Source: Promethearchaeota archaeon (GTDB lineage: Archaea > Asgardarchaeota > Hermodarchaeia > Hermodarchaeales > Hermodarchaeaceae). Taken from it: a stretch of DNA of 64,000 nt. The notes beneath the pieces were generated by a model. It searched no databases. It saw only the letters and a list, made by a program, of their open reading frames with translations, and was not told the DNA's origin. The translations under genes were made by a program, and so were the position numbers. The DNA lies in NCBI GenBank assembly GCA_048938385.1, contig JBHLMG010000002.1, positions 32,001 to 96,000 of the forward strand, read 5' to 3'. Position 1 is the stretch's first letter. Every line of letters begins with the position of its first letter. Shown one piece after another: positions 2,042 to 32,897 of this stretch.

Positions 2042-3340
2042 TTATAGTGCTTGTGTATCGAAAGGCACATCTTGTGCATTTAGGTTTCTCGTAATTTCTG
2101 CTTCATTAACGCTAAAAGTCTTTGAAGGGTACAACCATCTCTGGAATCCTGATCGGAGGTTGCTCCAACTCATGGCTACTAATAACTGGAAGCCTACGAT
2201 GGATGGGGCAAACCATCGCCAGATGGCATAATCCATCCAGTATAGGGAGAAAATATCAATGTGTGTGGTTGCGGCAAAGATTACCGGGACTATCCAAAGA
2301 ACGAGGGCAAACGCACTAAGAGGTATTGGAGGAGTTCGCTTTTGTTTAATATGGCCAATAAGCCACCAACTCAAAGTTCCCCAGATGAGGATGATTTGAA
2401 GGATGAGTAGCCCATAGAAGAGAGGGATTGGAATAAAAGGAAGTACAGGGTTGGTGGGATAATAATTTGGAAAAGTTGCTGGCGCCAGTACATTGTAGGC
2501 TAGAACACCGAATCCAAACCAAAGGAACCCCGCTAAGTTCAGGATGAAAATGGGGGCGCTGGCATTCAGCATCATCTGTGGATCTGGAATGGGTTGAGCG
2601 ATTAATGTATGAAGGAGATAGAAACTCACCGCTCCTCCAAATATACTCAACAGAATCCAAATTTCACGCCATTGATGTCGCAAAAAAAACAAGACGATGA
2701 AGGCAGGAAGGGCAAACGCGTAGGTTTCTTTTATGAGAAAGGCGAAAGCGAGACCAATTCCCGCAAGCCAAGGCTTTCCTTGGTAAGCATAATGAGTTCC
2801 AAGGATGAGGAAGGGCATAGCAAACAACGATATCTGAAATAGTGGAATGATGTTGAAGAAAAAAGAGGATTGTACAAAGGTTGCAGCTAATGCTGCCCAA
2901 CCCGAGGTAGTGATTGATCGCACCGACCAAAAGGTCAGGATCAAATTCATTGCGGCTACTGATACACAAACCATAGATAGCGGAAAGACAAAGTTTGAAC
3001 CAGCCCAACCTGTCAGGAAGACCATGGGGTAGAAGATGAAGGGTGTCCGGTAAATCCGAAGGTCCCCAAGATCACCGGTCGTCAGAGCTGCATGTCGCCA
3101 CGCTGAATAGAAATCTTCACCATTCAACATATAGTAAATTACGGTCTTGTGCATAGTATCATCGTCAACACCAATGTGTGGCACAAACTGGGTGCCCCAA
3201 GAGTAGGAAAGGAACACTCCCCAAATTATGCTACATACTGCAAGCAATACGATGAACCCGAATACTCCTTCCTTCCTTAGAATAGCCCAATTTGATGGCA
3301 CAGGAGTTCTCTCTCCAAACCTGGGATGTTCTTTTTTCAT
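2042..3340 (-). CDS. Multi-pass membrane protein, probable GT-C fold glycosyltransferase
   Basis: About 10 TM segments. An acidic DDD lies in the first external loop after TM1; also YRTP and LIKET motifs. Confidence 0.6.
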   Translation of the reverse strand: MKKEHPRFGERTPVPSNWAILRKEGVFGFIVLLAVCSIIWGVFLSYSWGTQFVPHIGVDDDTMHKTVIYYMLNGEDFYSAWRHAALTTGDLGDLRIYRTPFIFYPMVFLTGWAGSNFVFPLSMVCVSVAAMNLILTFWSVRSITTSGWAALAATFVQSSFFFNIIPLFQISLFAMPFLILGTHYAYQGKPWLAGIGLAFAFLIKETYAFALPAFIVLFFLRHQWREIWILLSIFGGAVSFYLLHTLIAQPIPDPQMMLNASAPIFILNLAGFLWFGFGVLAYNVLAPATFPNYYPTNPVLPFIPIPLFYGLLILQIILIWGTLSWWLIGHIKQKRTPPIPLSAFALVLWIVPVIFAATTHIDIFSLYWMDYAIWRWFAPSIVGFQLLVAMSWSNLRSGFQRWLYPSKTFSVNEAEITRNLNAQDVPFDTQAL

Positions 3341-3387: not shown

Positions 3388-3735
3388 TTAGGTCATTTTG
3401 CAATAGGTACAATCAGATAGAGATTGCGCTCCACACACAGCACAGGTTGAGCGTACTTTTTGGCAAATCTCACAAACTTCTTTAGAAATTAAATTAGGCG
3501 TTATTTCCCTGTTACTGATTTTATGAGCGAGGAGGGCGATTTCATCAAGGATGAATTGCCCGAGGAGGGCTTGACCGCGTTCTCCTTTCATGTAGTGTGA
3601 TATTGTAGCTTCCGTTGTACCCAACAACTTAGACACTTGCACTTGCGTCATTCCATTGTCCACAAGGTTCTTGGCTAAAGCTGACTTGATAGCCGGTAAG
3701 TGCTCGCGAACTACTTTCTCACAAGGAAACGCCAT
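3388..3735 (-). CDS. HTH transcriptional regulator (archaeal COG2522-like) with a C-terminal Cys cluster
   Basis: PCE...LPAIKSALAKNL..GMTQVQVSKLLGTTEATISHY..GERG. The C-terminus carries three CxxC pairs. ATG start at 3735. Confidence 0.8.
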   Translation of the reverse strand: MAFPCEKVVREHLPAIKSALAKNLVDNGMTQVQVSKLLGTTEATISHYMKGERGQALLGQFILDEIALLAHKISNREITPNLISKEVCEICQKVRSTCAVCGAQSLSDCTYCKMT

Positions 3736-3770
3736 ATCCAAGACTTCCAATACGGATTAGCACTAATTCA

Positions 3771-3858
3771 TTAACAATGTTAAGTTTTTTCAATACTTTG
3801 GATTTAAGTGTTCGGAACTCACTAATCTCATTCCTCCAAACCAATATTGTTAAGTTTT
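3771..3858. promoter_or_regulatory. Putative operator(s) in the divergent regulator/sufS intergenic region
   Basis: Perfect palindrome TTAACA-A-TGTTAA (3771-3783). TGTTAAGTTTT occurs twice, at 3778 and 3848. Confidence 0.45.
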
Positions 3859-3925
3859 AACTAGCATGAAGGTTTTCAAGGGAAAGCAACTTTAGGTTCT
3901 ATACTATACTTGTGGGTGAACTGGA

Positions 3926-5200
3926 ATGCAACCTGAAGATATGCGTCGAGATTTACCTATCACGCAACAATTCATCTACTTCGATAACGCTGCAACAACA
4001 CCTGTTCCAAGCCCAATCATCGACACGATCATTGAATATTTCGAAGAATATTGTGCTAACATCGAACGGGGAGCCTACTCGATTGCAGCGAAAGCATCAG
4101 ATGTTTGTGATGTAGCCCGCAACGATATTGCTACAAAATTACTGCATTGTGATGTGGAAGAATTCATTTTCACGCGGAATCAAACCCAAGCGGCTAACTT
4201 CGTTGCATATGCTTTAGAACATCCCTTTTTGAATCGTTGGAGTACAGGCTTTCAGTTTGCCCCGCCCCTTGTCAAATGGAGTCCTGAAAGCAAAATCGTT
4301 ACAACGCTACTTGAGCACCATTCTAATTTCATGCCATGGTTACGGCTGGCAAAACATGTCGGGGCTCAATTTCGTACAATTACTCCAACTCTGGATGGAC
4401 TACTACTCCCCGAAATGTTTGCGGAGGCCGTTGATGAAAACACCGCCTTTGTTGCCTTTCAACACGCTTCTAACGCAATGGGTACCAAACATGATGTACA
4501 AACGATTGTTCGTACTATTAAGGCGGTAAATCCTCAGTGCTTGGTTTTCATTGATGGTGCCCAAGCAGTAGGGCATATGCCTGTGGATGTTACGACCTTG
4601 GGGTGTGATTTTTACTCGTTTTCTGGCCACAAAGGGCCTCTGGGACCCCCTGGAACTGGAGGATTATACGTTCGCGAAGAACTTCTCCAACGCATGGCTC
4701 CGGCTGAAGTGGGAGGGGGAACTATCGCTGCCGTCACTGATAGTGATTACATGCTACGAAGAGACCACCGTGCGCGACGATGGGATGCAGGAACGCCCAA
4801 TATCATTGGACTCATTGGACTTGGCGCTGCTGTGAAATACCTGAATCGCATCGGTATTCAGAAAGTTGCTCAACAGGAGCATGTGTTAACTCGATACCTA
4901 CTCGATGGAATACGCGAGATTTCCAACCTTGTTGTGTATGGCCCTTATGAGGACATGACCTCGAAGATTGGCGCAGTATGCTTCAATATAGATGGATGGT
5001 TCTCACACGATGTGAGCCTTGCTTTAGATGCTCAATGGAAAATCCTTACCCGGGCTGGACATCATTGTTGCATGCCAATGATGAACCTACTTGGAGTATT
5101 AGAAAAATACCAAGGGAATGTCCGGGCGAGCTTCCACTACTTTAACCTCATTGAAGAAGTGGATGTCTTGGTGGGCGCCCTAAAAACCTTAGCCGGATAA
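3926..5200 (+). CDS. sufS: Cysteine desulfurase, SufS family (class V PLP)
   Basis: YFDNAATT, EHHSN, DGAQAVGH, the SGHK PLP lysine, GTPNI and the RAGHHC catalytic Cys motif. Confidence 0.92.
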   Translation: MQPEDMRRDLPITQQFIYFDNAATTPVPSPIIDTIIEYFEEYCANIERGAYSIAAKASDVCDVARNDIATKLLHCDVEEFIFTRNQTQAANFVAYALEHPFLNRWSTGFQFAPPLVKWSPESKIVTTLLEHHSNFMPWLRLAKHVGAQFRTITPTLDGLLLPEMFAEAVDENTAFVAFQHASNAMGTKHDVQTIVRTIKAVNPQCLVFIDGAQAVGHMPVDVTTLGCDFYSFSGHKGPLGPPGTGGLYVREELLQRMAPAEVGGGTIAAVTDSDYMLRRDHRARRWDAGTPNIIGLIGLGAAVKYLNRIGIQKVAQQEHVLTRYLLDGIREISNLVVYGPYEDMTSKIGAVCFNIDGWFSHDVSLALDAQWKILTRAGHHCCMPMMNLLGVLEKYQGNVRASFHYFNLIEEVDVLVGALKTLAG

Positions 5201-5204
5201 TCCG

Positions 5205-5957
5205 CTACACTGATCGACGAATGCTACTACATACCGGACAATCCGCATAATATGCGATTGGAATCTGATCAAACCGGAGATCGTTCAAATCTATAAAAAG
5301 CAGGTGTCCTGCAAGTCGTGGTTTTTTTCCAAGTAAAATTCTTACCGCTTCATGAACCTGAATATTAGCTACTACGCCCAATAGTGTGGGGTAGATACCA
5401 ATAGTATCGCAGGTGGGCTGTCGTGCGTCATCTACACCACCATAAATGCATTCCAAGCAGGGCGTTTTTCCAGGGAGGATAGTAGTGAGGTTTCCTACAG
5501 CGCCTAAAGCTCCTGCAAAGGCGTAAGGGATACCTTGGCGAACGCAAGCTCTGTTGATGATGTAACGAGGTCCAAACCGGTCTAAGCCGTCAACGATGAT
5601 GTCCATTCCTCGAATAAGCTCATCAACAGTTTCTTCTGCGAGCTGTTCTTGTCGGGGCTCAATAGTGACCTCTGGGTTTAAGGGCTGTAAGCGGCGCGTA
5701 GCCAGAGCGGTTTTAGGTTTCCCGATGTCCTTCTCCCGGTATAGGAATTGGCGTTGAAGATTGGATGCATCGACTACATCAGGGTCAATGATTCGGAGAT
5801 GATCCACACCCAGGGTAGTAAACTTAGTAGCTGATATACTCCCCAACCCCCCAATACCAACAACCGCAACTTTAGCCGCTCGAATGCGTTTCAATCCGTC
5901 TTTTCCGACATCACGGAGTACTATAAACCGCTGATAACGCGCATCCTTTGAAGGCAT
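5205..5957 (-). CDS. ThiF/MoeB/UbaA family E1-like adenylyltransferase
   Basis: RYQR, GIGGLG, DPDVVDASNLQRQ, PCLEC...CPVC zinc site and a TC catalytic Cys. The probable start is ATG 5957. Confidence 0.92.
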   Translation of the reverse strand: MPSKDARYQRFIVLRDVGKDGLKRIRAAKVAVVGIGGLGSISATKFTTLGVDHLRIIDPDVVDASNLQRQFLYREKDIGKPKTALATRRLQPLNPEVTIEPRQEQLAEETVDELIRGMDIIVDGLDRFGPRYIINRACVRQGIPYAFAGALGAVGNLTTILPGKTPCLECIYGGVDDARQPTCDTIGIYPTLLGVVANIQVHEAVRILLGKKPRLAGHLLFIDLNDLRFDQIPIAYYADCPVCSSIRRSV

Positions 5958-5976
5958 GAGGCGATCTCCAAAGCGA

Positions 5977-7494
5977 TTACAAGGCGGCCCGTTGCTTTGC
6001 TTCTTCAAAAAGCTGTCGACCCTTATCTGAAACTTCAATATCTGCAGAGGGGAGACCACGACCCACGGTCCGATGAATCGAAACAACCTCCTCTTCTTGC
6101 AAGTCTAAGAAGAATTTGTCCAACCAGGCGGCCAGTGAAACACCAAGCGTTGGGCTAAAGCCAAGCTCTTTAGCTGAGACACGGTACTTACCCTCAACGA
6201 TTTTGGTAGCAAATGTCGTGAGCACTATGTAGTGTTGGTCTTTCTGCAAGAGGATATCTTGGATGCGTGATCGGGCTTCCATAGCTGCAAGCCGATCCCG
6301 GATTTCGGTAAATCGGCTGTACTCTTCTTTCATTTGTTCAATTTCCGCTAAGGCCTTCTCTAACTGCTTTTCCAATTTTTCACGTTCTTTACCGATGGCA
6401 TCACGATCCTTGGTAACCTCTTTGAGGGCTTCTTGCTCCTCTTCTAACTGCGAGATTTTTAGTTCGTGAGATTCTTTCAAACTCTCTAGTTTTGAAATTT
6501 GGCCTTCTAGGTCGGCTATGCGTTTCGATGCTTGGGCTAGTTCCTGTTTAGAAGTAGTGAGCTCCTCCTTGGTTGCAGTTAAAGTTTCTTTAGTTGTTTC
6601 TAGCGATTGAATATCCGTCTGCAATTGCTCACGGGCTGTATCTCGTTCTGCTTCCAATCGCTGATGTTCAATCTTCAACTCTTGGAGTTCCGTGGTTACG
6701 GCATTCATCTCTTTCTTGACAGCAGCCTCAGATTGTTGGGCTTGCTGGAGTTGTTCTGATAGAGCTTTAATTTTAGCCTCTAAATCGTGCTTGGTCGCCG
6801 TAGCTGCGGATTGAGCGGTCGCCGCTGCCTCTGAAGCCGCAGAGTATTTAGCCTTCAGCTCTTCGATTTGCTGCAGAGCCTTATCTTGTTCACTGATCGC
6901 CTTTTCGCTCTGTTCTTTGAGTTGCAATAGATCCGCTTCGGTTTTCTTCAATGATTCAGATAGCTGCTTATTTGTGGCCTGCAATTTGTCAATTCGTCGT
7001 GCATCACGGGTTGACTGCGACTGCATCCGTTTCTCCAAATCGGCAATCCGCACTCGTGCTTCAGCCAATTCGGCTTCGAGTTCTTGCCGTGTTTTTTCAG
7101 AAGCAGAAATTTCATCCTGTAACCGTTTTCGTAGTTCTTCTCGCTCCGAAGCCGTCATGGCAGCTAAAGCACTCAGCTCATCCGCTGCTCCTGATAAACC
7201 AGCCTTTGCCCGAGTAATTTCTTGAATTTTCGCTCGGGCTTGTTCATTGAAACGCTTAGCTTCTGCTTTCACACCTTCTTGAATATCGTTCACAACAGGA
7301 CCACTCAATCGCCCAAATCCGATGGCTTCCATGCGTTTTTCAACGCGATCGGCAAGCATCAAAAGGCTGCGTTGAAGATCACGCGTTAACACATCAATTG
7401 CGTCTACGATGTCATTGGTAAGTGCTTCAATTTGGCGTTTTAAGACTTCAGTGCGTATAGCTTTATCTTCGGCTTCTTGCGCCATTAAACCCAC
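5977..7494 (-). CDS. Long coiled-coil protein with a probable C-terminal winged-helix domain
   Basis: About 300 aa of E/K/Q/A/L heptads. The C-terminus SAKELG...LQEEEVVSI...IEVSDKGRQLF follows a wHTH pattern. Confidence 0.7.
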   Translation of the reverse strand: MGLMAQEAEDKAIRTEVLKRQIEALTNDIVDAIDVLTRDLQRSLLMLADRVEKRMEAIGFGRLSGPVVNDIQEGVKAEAKRFNEQARAKIQEITRAKAGLSGAADELSALAAMTASEREELRKRLQDEISASEKTRQELEAELAEARVRIADLEKRMQSQSTRDARRIDKLQATNKQLSESLKKTEADLLQLKEQSEKAISEQDKALQQIEELKAKYSAASEAAATAQSAATATKHDLEAKIKALSEQLQQAQQSEAAVKKEMNAVTTELQELKIEHQRLEAERDTAREQLQTDIQSLETTKETLTATKEELTTSKQELAQASKRIADLEGQISKLESLKESHELKISQLEEEQEALKEVTKDRDAIGKEREKLEKQLEKALAEIEQMKEEYSRFTEIRDRLAAMEARSRIQDILLQKDQHYIVLTTFATKIVEGKYRVSAKELGFSPTLGVSLAAWLDKFFLDLQEEEVVSIHRTVGRGLPSADIEVSDKGRQLFEEAKQRAAL

Positions 7495-7909
7495 CTTGTA
7501 TTAAGGGATCCAAACTCACCCTAGTTTGAGCGTGTGAACCTAGATAAGGTTTCCTCCTCCAAGACAATGGCAATTATTTCTAATAAAACCTATTCCTCTT
7601 CTTCCTCGATAATCTGAAAAGTTCCTGCTAAGAATAGGAACTATACACGATGCCAATTAAATTTCATCCACTATTCAAACATTCTCCTTGCAATTCTCCT
7701 CATCCTGGTAGTAAATTGAGGGGGTTCAATGCATCCGGGATTATTGGCTCCTAGCTATCGTTTTCATGGTTGTATTTACCGTCCGTTTGTTTGCAGGCAA
7801 AATCAAACAGTTCCGTCAACCCTACAAGAAGTACATGATACTTTGAGACCAGAGAGTTTATAGGGTGTTACTCGCCCGATGGACCAGACTTTAACTGAGA
7901 TTGATTACT

Positions 7910-8269
7910 ATGGACACCGAAACTATTCTCAGCGTATTGCGTCGGGTTCTCGATCCCGAACATCCAATAAGCGTTGTTGAAATGGGTCTTGTGAAGGCAG
8001 AAGATGTAATCATAGACAAGGACGCTATCCGAGTGCAATTTACTCCCACTGTACCTGGGTGTCCTATGGGGGCAGTTATTGGTATAATCATTCGAAAGGC
8101 CCTTGAAGACGCATTTCCAACTCAAAAGGTTCAGGTGCGAGTGAAACCTGGAACCCACTTGCGAGAGGATACCTGTAACACCTTGATTAACGATGATACC
8201 CAATACCAATCCGCCATCGAAAAATTAACTGCTTCCGGAGCTTTAGATCGCTTAATTGTAAAAGAATAG
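7910..8269 (+). CDS. Fe-S cluster assembly factor, MIP18/CIA2 (DUF59) family
   Basis: DPEHP...FTPTVPGCPMGAVIG...PGTH..E...N....D. Confidence 0.88.
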   Translation: MDTETILSVLRRVLDPEHPISVVEMGLVKAEDVIIDKDAIRVQFTPTVPGCPMGAVIGIIIRKALEDAFPTQKVQVRVKPGTHLREDTCNTLINDDTQYQSAIEKLTASGALDRLIVKE

Positions 8270-30248: not shown

Positions 30249-32897
30249 CTATACAAGTGGTTCTTCGGTAACTTCGGGTTTCACAGTGGTTAAAACTTGC
30301 ACACCTTGTAGAATCATACTTGCTGCTTCTAAGGCTCCATCCTTAAACAATGGTGTGTTGTTGTTACCACAGCGATACGAGAAAGTACACGCTGGACATC
30401 CTTCCATTGCTTCACAAGCACAATCTTGAATTATGATAGCGACACGGCGCCAAGCTTCCTCCAACCGGTCAAAGAGCAGTTTGGACAACCCACTACCACC
30501 TGGGCTACCATCGTAGATGAAAATCAACCCAGTTGCACCCATAGAAACACCACCCATCCCTTGACTCCCTCCGCCTGTAAGCATGTCACTACTTTCAATT
30601 AAGACATGTTCAAGGGCATGAAACCCTCCTACTGTTAGTTCCTCTTCTGTGATGGCTGTTTCTCCATTGGGCCTCGGTTGGGATGAAGGCTTTTCGAGCA
30701 GTTGCATCCAGGCTTTTACGGTCTTGATTGGCTGGGGTGCTGTAAAAAAGAAGCCCTTTGTCTGATAGGTAAATTCTAACGCTTTATCAAGGTCTTTTGT
30801 CCTCAAAACCTTGTCAGTGTAAATATCCTTGATCACATATCCCGTCACGACTTCGGTCATGCGTAAATCGGCATAATGAACAGTGAGGCCATACACTTGA
30901 CGAGAATTCAATACTCGTATAATCTCTGGGTTCACATGGCGTAAGGGCTGTGTCATTTCTCGGTGACCGGTTGGCAACCGTTTAACCACGGCTCGACCAA
31001 CATTGTGTCGATATTCGAACTCCAACGATTCATAGGTGTGTCCCGCATGGAGGTACAAGGCTCCAGGGTGGAGTTCTCCCATGGCAATTGGCATTTGGCG
31101 TTCACCAATGATTTTGCCTTCATGGATAATTTGTACACTGTCACCAATACCTCGAATCGAGTAATGCGCAAGAGAGCGTCGTGCGGTGATGATATCTGGT
31201 TTCAAAAAGCCATTAGATTTCCTGAGTAGCTTCTCCTCAAGTAAAAGTTGGAGAACTGTTTGAAACTCTTGAAATTCCTTCGATTTAATTGGAGAATCAA
31301 GTGCAGCAGCTAAAAGTTGATGATGAGCCACAACCTCGTTCTGCGGTTCAACATATGCTGCATCGATATCGGTGAAATAGTCATCAGGGTGTTCACGGTA
31401 ATAGGTGCTAATCGCTTCGTTAGCCCGAAGCGCCAACACAGCCACACTTTCTTGTCCCTTTCGTCCAGCCCGACCAATTCGTTGAGTTAGTCGGGTGATG
31501 CCCACTAACATGGACAAAACACCATCCAGATCTCCAATATCAATCCCCAACTCCAGAGTGGGCGTAGAAACCAATAAATCCAATTCACCATTCCGGAACG
31601 CATCTTCTACTTTCTGTCGATAGCTCATGGGGAGCCCCGCTCGATGAACAGCACTGGAAAGCCGAGTTCGGCGAGCAATGAGATTGATGACTTCAGCGTT
31701 CTTATGAGTATTAGCAAAGATGAGGGTTTTGAGGTTATGACGGACTAGCTCTTGGGCGACGCTAGCAATCATGGAACTCTGACTCACCCGTTCTGGATAA
31801 AGCATCAGAAAATGTATGATACCTCTCTTCGCAGTATCACATTGAATTGGAGTGACCGATCGACCAAAGAGCAGTTCAGTGAATTCCTGCGCATTCGCAA
31901 CTGTTGCTGAAGCTCCAATGAGCTGCAACGGTGGACAAAGGCGTTGGAGGCGACGCAATAGAAAATGAACATTGGATCCAAAGGCACCCACATAAACATG
32001 CAACTCGTCTAACACAATGTGTCGGGCTGTTCGTACCAATCGACGAATAGGGTCTCTTGGTCGAATCAGATGAATGTGAAGCATATCTGGATTAGTGATG
32101 AGAATATCAGGTGGTTGTCGGAAAATCATCGCTCGCTCTGATTTAGGAGTATCGCCATCCAACACTGCTACATCTAAACCAACAGTTCCAGCGAGTTTAA
32201 CAAGTTTTCCTGCTTGGTCTCGGGCTAGGGCTTTGGTGGGATAGATGAAAATGGCTTGGACATCTCGATGTTCCGCCGCTCGAAGAGGACCCCACCCAAC
32301 ACGCCGCGTTAGAATTTGTTCAATGATGGGCAACGCAAAAGCTTCAGTTTTTCCTGTAGCGGTGGGTGCAGAAATGACGACATCCTTACCTGCCAAGATG
32401 TGATGAAAGGCTTCTTCCTGAAATTTAAACAAGGTTGTGATGCCCTGACTGCTAAGGGCTTTTTTTAATTGCTCATTTAAAGAACTGGCAGTTATCGCAT
32501 TTCCAGGTTCTGGAACCGTTTCTGGAAACTGCCGATACCGCACTAATCTGAAGCTTGGATCCGCCAAAATGCGTTGCAGGACTTCAGGCAATCGTCTTAT
32601 GTCGCTCACTCCTGCGGTTTTCAGCTGCTTCTTCCACTCAGCTCTCGATCGTGGAGGACTCGACTTAGCTTGTTCATCAGATAATTGCCTGCGTTGATAT
32701 TCTACCTGAGTCTGCTGCGCGGATTCACCTGCTTCCATAACATCCATAAATCGGAAATAGGCAGCAACAGGATCTTTTACTTCTCCGGGTTTGGTACTGT
32801 AGCTAGCATTGCACTGCGTACAACGAATCTGATAATGTTTACCCAACTCTTGAACTTCAACGAAGCCTGAGCAGTGTGGACAGATCCGGTATGTCAT
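30249..32897 (-). CDS. SF2 helicase, Hrq1/MrfA/SftH (DUF1998) family, with an N-terminal Elf1-like zinc ribbon
   Basis: TATGKT, YPTKALARDQ, TNPDMLH, DELH, SAT, LELGIDIG, QRIGRAGR, HPGALY, YDGSPGGSG and C-x-C...GCPAC...C. The N-terminus has CPHC...CTQC. Confidence 0.93.
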   Translation of the reverse strand: MTYRICPHCSGFVEVQELGKHYQIRCTQCNASYSTKPGEVKDPVAAYFRFMDVMEAGESAQQTQVEYQRRQLSDEQAKSSPPRSRAEWKKQLKTAGVSDIRRLPEVLQRILADPSFRLVRYRQFPETVPEPGNAITASSLNEQLKKALSSQGITTLFKFQEEAFHHILAGKDVVISAPTATGKTEAFALPIIEQILTRRVGWGPLRAAEHRDVQAIFIYPTKALARDQAGKLVKLAGTVGLDVAVLDGDTPKSERAMIFRQPPDILITNPDMLHIHLIRPRDPIRRLVRTARHIVLDELHVYVGAFGSNVHFLLRRLQRLCPPLQLIGASATVANAQEFTELLFGRSVTPIQCDTAKRGIIHFLMLYPERVSQSSMIASVAQELVRHNLKTLIFANTHKNAEVINLIARRTRLSSAVHRAGLPMSYRQKVEDAFRNGELDLLVSTPTLELGIDIGDLDGVLSMLVGITRLTQRIGRAGRKGQESVAVLALRANEAISTYYREHPDDYFTDIDAAYVEPQNEVVAHHQLLAAALDSPIKSKEFQEFQTVLQLLLEEKLLRKSNGFLKPDIITARRSLAHYSIRGIGDSVQIIHEGKIIGERQMPIAMGELHPGALYLHAGHTYESLEFEYRHNVGRAVVKRLPTGHREMTQPLRHVNPEIIRVLNSRQVYGLTVHYADLRMTEVVTGYVIKDIYTDKVLRTKDLDKALEFTYQTKGFFFTAPQPIKTVKAWMQLLEKPSSQPRPNGETAITEEELTVGGFHALEHVLIESSDMLTGGGSQGMGGVSMGATGLIFIYDGSPGGSGLSKLLFDRLEEAWRRVAIIIQDCACEAMEGCPACTFSYRCGNNNTPLFKDGALEAASMILQGVQVLTTVKPEVTEEPLV

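Follow-up and report, generated by a model that had tools for sequence, protein, structure and literature searches.

We analysed a 64-kb stretch of DNA (64,000 nucleotides; hereafter the window) from a Hermodarchaeia genome of 2.48 Mb that is about 90% complete, centring on a gene at positions 7910–8269 of the + strand that encodes a 119-amino-acid protein of the DUF59 family (PF01883). The window covers positions 32,001–96,000 of contig C2. The closest relatives of the host genome are named Hermodarchaeota, and one genome of the same GTDB genus is that of Ca. Hermodarchaeum yapensis. The open reading frame (ORF) is open from 7901, and the gene starts at the ATG at 7910; its homologues are also 119 amino acids long when counted from there. 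This ATG is preceded, at a distance of about 50 bp, by a TTTATA box. The Pfam domain was matched with an E-value of 9.3e-13 (48.7 bits against a cut-off of 23.5 bits), and this was the sole PF01883 match in the genome. The protein carries DPEHP, FTPTVPGCPM, IG and PGTH..E...N...ND, and the SufT-type motifs TxxGCP and DPPW, which we looked for in it, were absent. An original prediction had interpreted the gene as a eukaryote-type CIA2/MIP18 protein of a possible precursor of the cytosolic iron-sulfur (Fe-S) assembly (CIA) pathway. The ORF, the quoted motifs and the missing SufT motifs were as described there, and the ORF list and Pfam likewise bore out the neighbours named with them: a helix-turn-helix (HTH) protein with a Cys cluster, a SufS-type enzyme, a ThiF/MoeB-type E1 and a stand-alone WD40 protein.

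When all PDB sequences were searched using phmmer, the top matches of the DUF59 protein were Drosophila galla-2/CIA2B (2e-16) and human FAM96A (2e-12), in alignments spanning residues 5 to about 110 and including the C-terminal extension. Bacterial DUF59 proteins in the PDB (TTHB138, TM0487 and that of B. anthracis) matched at 8e-7 or worse, over residues 11–81 only. A profile-free exhaustive search of 1.8 billion representatives returned a few short archaeal proteins first, followed by about 140 proteins of 150–300 amino acids that aligned to the DUF59 protein through their C-terminus; the named ones among these were eukaryotic CIA2/AE7 proteins (those of Pygsuia, Hartaetosiga and Ancyromonas, CIA2B of Anaeramoeba, and AE7 of Ricinus and Lupinus). 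The AlphaFold model of the protein (mean predicted local distance difference test score, pLDDT, 94.4) has C-terminal helices at residues 86–94, 96–109 and 111–115. It superposed on the CIAO2B chains of 6TBN and 6TC0, which are crystals of the CIA targeting complex, with template-modelling (TM) scores of 0.91–0.92 and a root-mean-square deviation of 1.7 Å over all 122 columns, compared with TM scores of 0.82 for monomeric FAM96A and 0.56–0.60 for bacterial DUF59 proteins. At the sequence level, the likeness to CIA2 far exceeds what chance would produce. Together, the motifs and the model showed the whole CIA2 architecture: an alpha-beta core with an invariant Cys in a P-T-x-P-x-C loop, a C-terminal G-T-H-x-x-E-x-x-x-N motif and three helices, the last two features being absent from SufT-like proteins.

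To place the protein, we built a maximum-likelihood (ML) tree of 97 rows under LG+C20+F+G4 from 120 alignment columns; Asgard families are numbered here (f3, f6, f7 and so on), f6 being Thor-like, f10 Sif-like and the family of the host Hermod-like. Three kinds of DUF59 protein occur in Asgard genomes. The first (T1) is the CIA2 type, with P-T-x-P-x-C-P-M ... P-G-T-H-x-x-E-x-x-x-N. The second (T2), from families f16 and f19, is a divergent full-length type that has W-x-P-T-x-P-F-C-P-L, shows W-N-x-x-L-x-N in its C-terminal extension, lacks G-T-H and forms its own clade with 100/100 support; in f19 it occurs alongside a SufT-like DUF59 protein. The third (T3) is the classic SufT-like type of about 100 amino acids, with T-L-T-x-P-G-C-P ... 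D-P-P-W. The contrast with SufT that the original prediction had drawn thus holds within the Asgard phylum, where other families carry these short proteins.

In the ML tree, bacterial and T3 rows were split from T1, T2 and eukaryotic rows at 100/100, and the window protein therefore did not group with bacterial SufT/PaaD. Together with the PDB ranking and the TM score of 0.92 to CIAO2B, this split supports the predicted membership of the protein in the CIA2/MIP18 branch of DUF59 rather than the SufT/PaaD branch. Eukaryotic CIA2 was monophyletic (100/100). Its ML sister group consisted of 17 Asgard T1 rows that included the clade of the window protein, at a support of only 19/72. The Asgard T1 rows were intermixed with sequences from Bathyarchaeia, Methanocellales, Mnemosynella and Thermococci, so that Asgard plus Eukarya formed no clean clade for this protein; a single clade of all Asgard T1 rows and eukaryotes was marginally rejected by the approximately unbiased (AU) test (p-AU 0.028).

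The CIA2-type protein is found well beyond the window. Among 301 Asgard genomes, 102 had DUF59 matches; the CIA2 type was present in 12 of 18 genomes of the host family, in 39 of 76 genomes of f6, and also in f3, f7, f18 and f10, and no DUF59 match was found among the genomes of f9 (0/68), f21 (0/21) or f13 (0/11). Full-length relatives outside Asgard archaea, in metagenome-assembled genomes (MAGs) of Bathyarchaeia, Methanocellales, Mnemosynella and Thermococci, were 40–50% identical over residues 2–119. These archaeal proteins are annotated merely as ‘iron-sulfur cluster assembly protein’. The window protein accordingly belongs, as a typical member, to an archaeal family, and the idea of a specifically eukaryote-like oddity did not survive; its sister position to eukaryotes is unsupported. 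In a Nanoarchaeota-labelled MAG, we also observed a 320-amino-acid fusion of a HAD-hydrolase to a CIA2-type DUF59 domain (locus L017:8001–8963), beside a ferredoxin and a class II ribonucleotide reductase.

That CIA2B is linked to Asgard archaea has been reported before: Tobiasson et al. (Nature 2026; PMC12872458; preprint PMC12338589) described for CIA1 and CIA2B a “clear association with Asgard” and did not detect MMS19. In the literature searched, we found no account of the CIA2-type family of archaea, of how widely it is distributed among them or of its gene context. To the published statement our results add that the family is wider than Asgard and that, with a protein so short, the donor lineage of eukaryotic CIA2 lies beyond the reach of 120 alignment columns and cannot be named.

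We then compared residues across 41 archaeal (T1) and 51 eukaryotic rows, counting positions at least 85% identical as conserved. D15, P16, E17, P19, F44, P46, T47, C51, M53, I57, G58, L65, G81, H83, E86 and N90 were conserved in both groups alike. Of these, G81, H83, E86 and N90 were found in T1 and eukaryotic rows only and were missing from SufT-like and bacterial rows, and the loop Cys (Cys51) was kept in 100% of the 41 archaeal and 51 eukaryotic rows. An alignment of 19 archaeal sequences was invariant at D15, P16, E17, P19, F44, P46, T47, P49, C51, P52, M53, G54, I57, G58, G81, H83, E86 and N90. In Drosophila, R134 of DmCia2b is the salt-bridge anchor for the C-terminal carboxylate of clients at the Cia1-Cia2 interface (10.64898/2026.04.06.716496). 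When this numbering was transferred through the PDB phmmer alignment with galla-2/CIA2B, the corresponding position was Gln in the window protein and variable among archaea. Consistent with this change, client-type tails were not enriched in the genome: [LIM][DES][WF] C-termini occurred in 4 of 2205 ORFs, against 4.6 expected. The client-recognition residues look like eukaryotic additions.

Upstream of the DUF59 gene, a cysteine desulfurase of the SufS/CsdA type (group II; 424 amino acids; PF00266, 2.8e-99) is encoded at 3926–5200 on the + strand, 2.7 kb from the DUF59 gene. It has the SGHK motif with the pyridoxal phosphate-binding lysine and the GHHC motif with the catalytic Cys, and it scored 348 bits with the TIGR01979 sufS model, below the 475-bit cut-off. 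It is followed by an E1-like adenylyltransferase of the ThiF/MoeB/UbaA type (5205–5957, − strand; about 250 amino acids; PF00899, 5.9e-70), for which the MoeB, ThiF and SAMP-E1 models all scored below their cut-offs. Orthologues of the E1 protein are 247 amino acids long, and an upstream TTG at 6086 is probably not its start. Four ThiS/MoaD-like genes are present in the genome, all away from the DUF59 neighbourhood.

Divergent from the desulfurase gene is that of the HTH protein (3388–3750, − strand; HTH_3, 7e-5), which has an N-terminal Cys and three C-terminal CxxC pairs. The intergenic region between the two holds the palindrome TTAACAATGTTAA (3771–3783), a candidate operator, and TGTTAAGTTTT recurs 70 bp downstream of it, at 3849–3859. 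A homologue of the HTH protein (E 1e-11; L042:10041–10349) lies directly 5′ of IscS-IscU in an unrelated hot-spring archaeon. The HTH protein is a candidate Fe-S or metal-sensing regulator and may control cysteine desulfurase genes in archaea.

Between the E1 gene and the DUF59 gene lies a gene for a 505-amino-acid coiled-coil protein (5977–7494, − strand), which is divergent from the DUF59 gene and had coiled-coil-type Pfam and NCBIfam matches below cut-offs. Its orthologues were found in the host family only (relatives’ loci L002–L007). As a candidate conserved partner it was rejected, having no detectable similarity to a large divergent gene in Ranarchaeia (E 0.2), and the coiled-coil protein is probably not a functional partner of the DUF59 protein. 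The remaining genes comprise one for a GT87-like membrane protein (2042–3340, − strand), upstream of the HTH gene, and those for an FGGY kinase and a nitroreductase, which are listed after the DUF59 gene in the same region.

The order WD40...HTH-desulfurase-ThiF-coiled coil-DUF59-FGGY was retained in Hermod relatives, at times with insertions. Beyond the family, in f17, an IscS-type desulfurase gene lies 37 bp downstream of the DUF59 gene on the same strand, and in the unclassified hot-spring archaeon (L042), genes for the HTH-Cys protein, IscS and IscU converge on DUF59. Weaker class-V aminotransferases occurred near DUF59 in f3 and Ranarchaeia, and ThiF genes lay within 5 kb of DUF59 in three lineages, once with ThiI. 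The idea of a universal operon partner of DUF59 was rejected: the loci of Mnemosynella, Bathyarchaeia, Methanocellales and f7 (whose gene order f18 shares) have unrelated housekeeping neighbours. With a desulfurase beside DUF59 in some lineages and housekeeping genes elsewhere, an association of DUF59 with sulfur mobilisation recurs without being universal. Of the expected synteny, the part that stood is a desulfurase adjoining DUF59, which recurs in two other lineages.

We also surveyed the Fe-S assembly genes. In the genome, we found an IscS-IscU pair on contig C34, seven class-V aminotransferase matches and one ATPase of the Mrp/ApbC type, which has a CPHC motif and is without the N-terminal Cys cluster of NBP35. 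Searches for SufB/D (PF01458) and SufE found neither in this genome, which is about 90% complete. Within the host family, SufB/D was present in 1 of 18 genomes, and most other Asgard families have it. The enzyme called SufS in the original prediction therefore does not belong to a SUF system, and the Hermod-like lineage may rely on IscS-IscU alone, which would be unusual for archaea. An anticorrelation between CIA2-type DUF59 and SUF across Asgard families was considered and rejected; it holds in the host family only, and f3, f7 and f18 carry both. Directly 5′ of IscS-IscU (C34:64699–66721), we noted a 123-amino-acid gene whose product, judged by eye, resembles a sulfur-relay protein of the DsrE/TusD type; if so, a sulfur-relay module would be present outside the window.

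Taking these results together, we propose that the product of the DUF59 gene is an archaeal protein of the MIP18/CIA2 branch that stands alone and acts as a late Fe-S maturation factor, a reading to which we assign a probability of about 0.7. The protein would take a cluster or a persulfide-derived intermediate from the assembly machinery and help to load apo-proteins. The invariant Cys51 would be the working residue, probably aided by two other invariant residues close to it, His83 and Glu86. In this genome, the IscS-IscU pair, the Mrp/ApbC-type ATPase and the neighbouring SufS-type desulfurase could serve as source machinery. Most likely, the protein needs neither the eukaryotic CIA1-MMS19 scaffold nor a C-terminal tripeptide code that marks clients. 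Control of the neighbouring desulfurase is the most likely role of the HTH-Cys gene, and the SufS-E1 pair may supply a sulfur-carrier (thiocarboxylate) route of its own.

Several points weigh against this proposal. CIA2 and SufT act in their hosts as late Fe-S maturation factors, and the function suggested for the archaeal protein would be carried over from them by analogy. The order HTH-sufS-ThiF-DUF59 is conserved in the host family only, and that whole region is collinear there, so the retained gene order says little about functional coupling. In most other lineages, DUF59 lies among unrelated genes of housekeeping function (GATase, eIF2-gamma, archaemetzincin, LarC and OTCase). Where 75% of eukaryotic and 54% of archaeal members have a second Cys close to the C-terminus, the window protein has Leu; this Cys was lost in the Hermod clade, and about half of the archaeal family retains it. 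In addition, with the genome about 90% complete, the absences of SufB/D, SufE and Nar1 are provisional.

The original prediction went further, treating the WD40 protein as a CIA1-like partner and the pair as an archaeal precursor of the cytosolic Fe-S targeting complex. On that account, the DUF59 protein and the nearby WD40 propeller would form a complex equivalent to that of CIA2 with CIA1, and the two would jointly recruit Fe-S clients. The WD40 gene (905–1813, + strand; 302 amino acids; WD40, 1.6e-51) encodes the sole PF00400 protein detected in the genome, just as the DUF59 gene is the only one of its kind; the two lie 6 kb apart, the WD40 gene remains in the same neighbourhood in relatives, and both CIA1 and CIA2B show an Asgard association in the work of Tobiasson et al. 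(PMC12872458). However, the best PDB matches of the WD40 protein were a Nostoc WD40 protein (2YMU), designed WRAP proteins and WDR5, with CIAO1 outside the best 60. Orthologues in relatives are 60–66% identical, within a family of about 290 amino acids and 35–42% identity that is common in metagenomes. Judged by these matches, the propeller appears generic and WDR5-like, and nothing in them likens it specifically to CIA1. Between the WD40 and DUF59 genes lie five others, not all on one strand, and synteny of the whole region in the family makes their co-location uninformative. Co-folding of the two proteins scored 0.02 against a mark of 0.32, which speaks neither for nor against binding. A Nar1-type domain (PF02906, Nar1/Fe-hydrogenase) was not found in the 90% complete genome, and a search for PF12460 (MMS19_C) was empty but weak, as its control matched in no genome. 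Adding the replacement of the client-anchoring Arg by Gln and the lack of tail enrichment, we consider a direct precursor of the targeting complex very unlikely.

A functionally plain SufT would require less of the neighbourhood. The protein would then be a general auxiliary Fe-S maturation factor at high demand, its CIA2 likeness reflecting ancestry with no CIA-like specialisation. Both belong to the same superfamily with the same invariant DPE and Cys, the window protein is a single-domain protein of SufT size, and a SufS-type desulfurase is close by, as is often the case for sufT (PMC4982691). By contrast, the SufT motifs are missing, and the SufT models scored 39.5 bits against a cut-off of 143.4 bits (TIGR02945) and 41.6 bits against 202.6 bits (TIGR03406). 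No SufB/C/D partner system was found in the host family, and some Asgard genomes pair a SufT-like DUF59 protein with T2, which is also C-terminally extended, pointing to distinct roles. We regard this account as unlikely. A sulfur-relay accessory, in which the DUF59 protein together with the SufS-type desulfurase and the ThiF/MoeB-type E1 would make thiocarboxylated carriers for tRNA thiolation, molybdopterin or thiamine, appears highly improbable to us. The ThiF-family genes near DUF59 in three separate lineages speak for it, as does the partnership of CsdA with the E1-like CsdL in E. coli. However, the neighbourhood has no ThiS/MoaD gene, most lineages have no ThiF gene nearby, and to our knowledge no DUF59 protein takes part in a thiocarboxylate sulfur relay.

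Beyond the proposal of a late maturation factor of the MIP18/CIA2 branch, we put forward tentatively, and consider rather unlikely, a more specific version in which the CIA2-type protein would be dedicated to late-stage delivery in a minimal cytosolic Fe-S pathway of Hermodarchaeia, which have apparently lost SufBC. Such a pathway would run from IscS-IscU and/or the SufS-type desulfurase to Mrp/ApbC and then to the CIA2-like protein. CIA2 is essential in eukaryotes; if this version were true, the archaeal pathway would be a living functional model of a pre-eukaryotic core, to which CIA1, MMS19 and the tripeptide client code were added later. A 119-amino-acid archaeal protein with the full CIA2 fold and no recognised eukaryotic scaffold also offers a simple system for asking what the Cys/His/Glu site binds and where the cluster comes from.

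Among known systems, the closest to the window protein are the archaeal CIA2-type proteins of Hermod-, Thor- and Sif-like families, Ranarchaeia and non-Asgard archaea, which have the same length and motifs and are 40–82% identical to it. SufT is the SUF-linked DUF59 protein, as in S. aureus (PMC4982691). SufT/PaaD proteins share with the window protein the DUF59 core, DPE, a single conserved Cys and a presumed role in Fe-S protein maturation, but SufT carries T-x-x-G-C-P and D-P-P-W, is shorter by about 20 residues at its C-terminal end and is usually encoded beside sufBC. Eukaryotic CIA2 proteins (CIAO2B/FAM96B, CIA2A/FAM96A, yeast Cia2 and plant AE7) are approximately 30–38% identical to the window protein and have in common with it the whole fold with its C-terminal helices, DPEHP, the F-x-P-T-x-P-x-C-x-M...IG loop with the reactive Cys, and G-T-H-x-x-E-x-x-x-N. 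They differ in having an N-terminal extension that the window protein lacks, in H-C-S around the Cys (H in 92% and S in 94%) where the window protein has G-C-P, and in K-E-R in the first C-terminal helix (R in 92%) where the window protein has D-T-Q.

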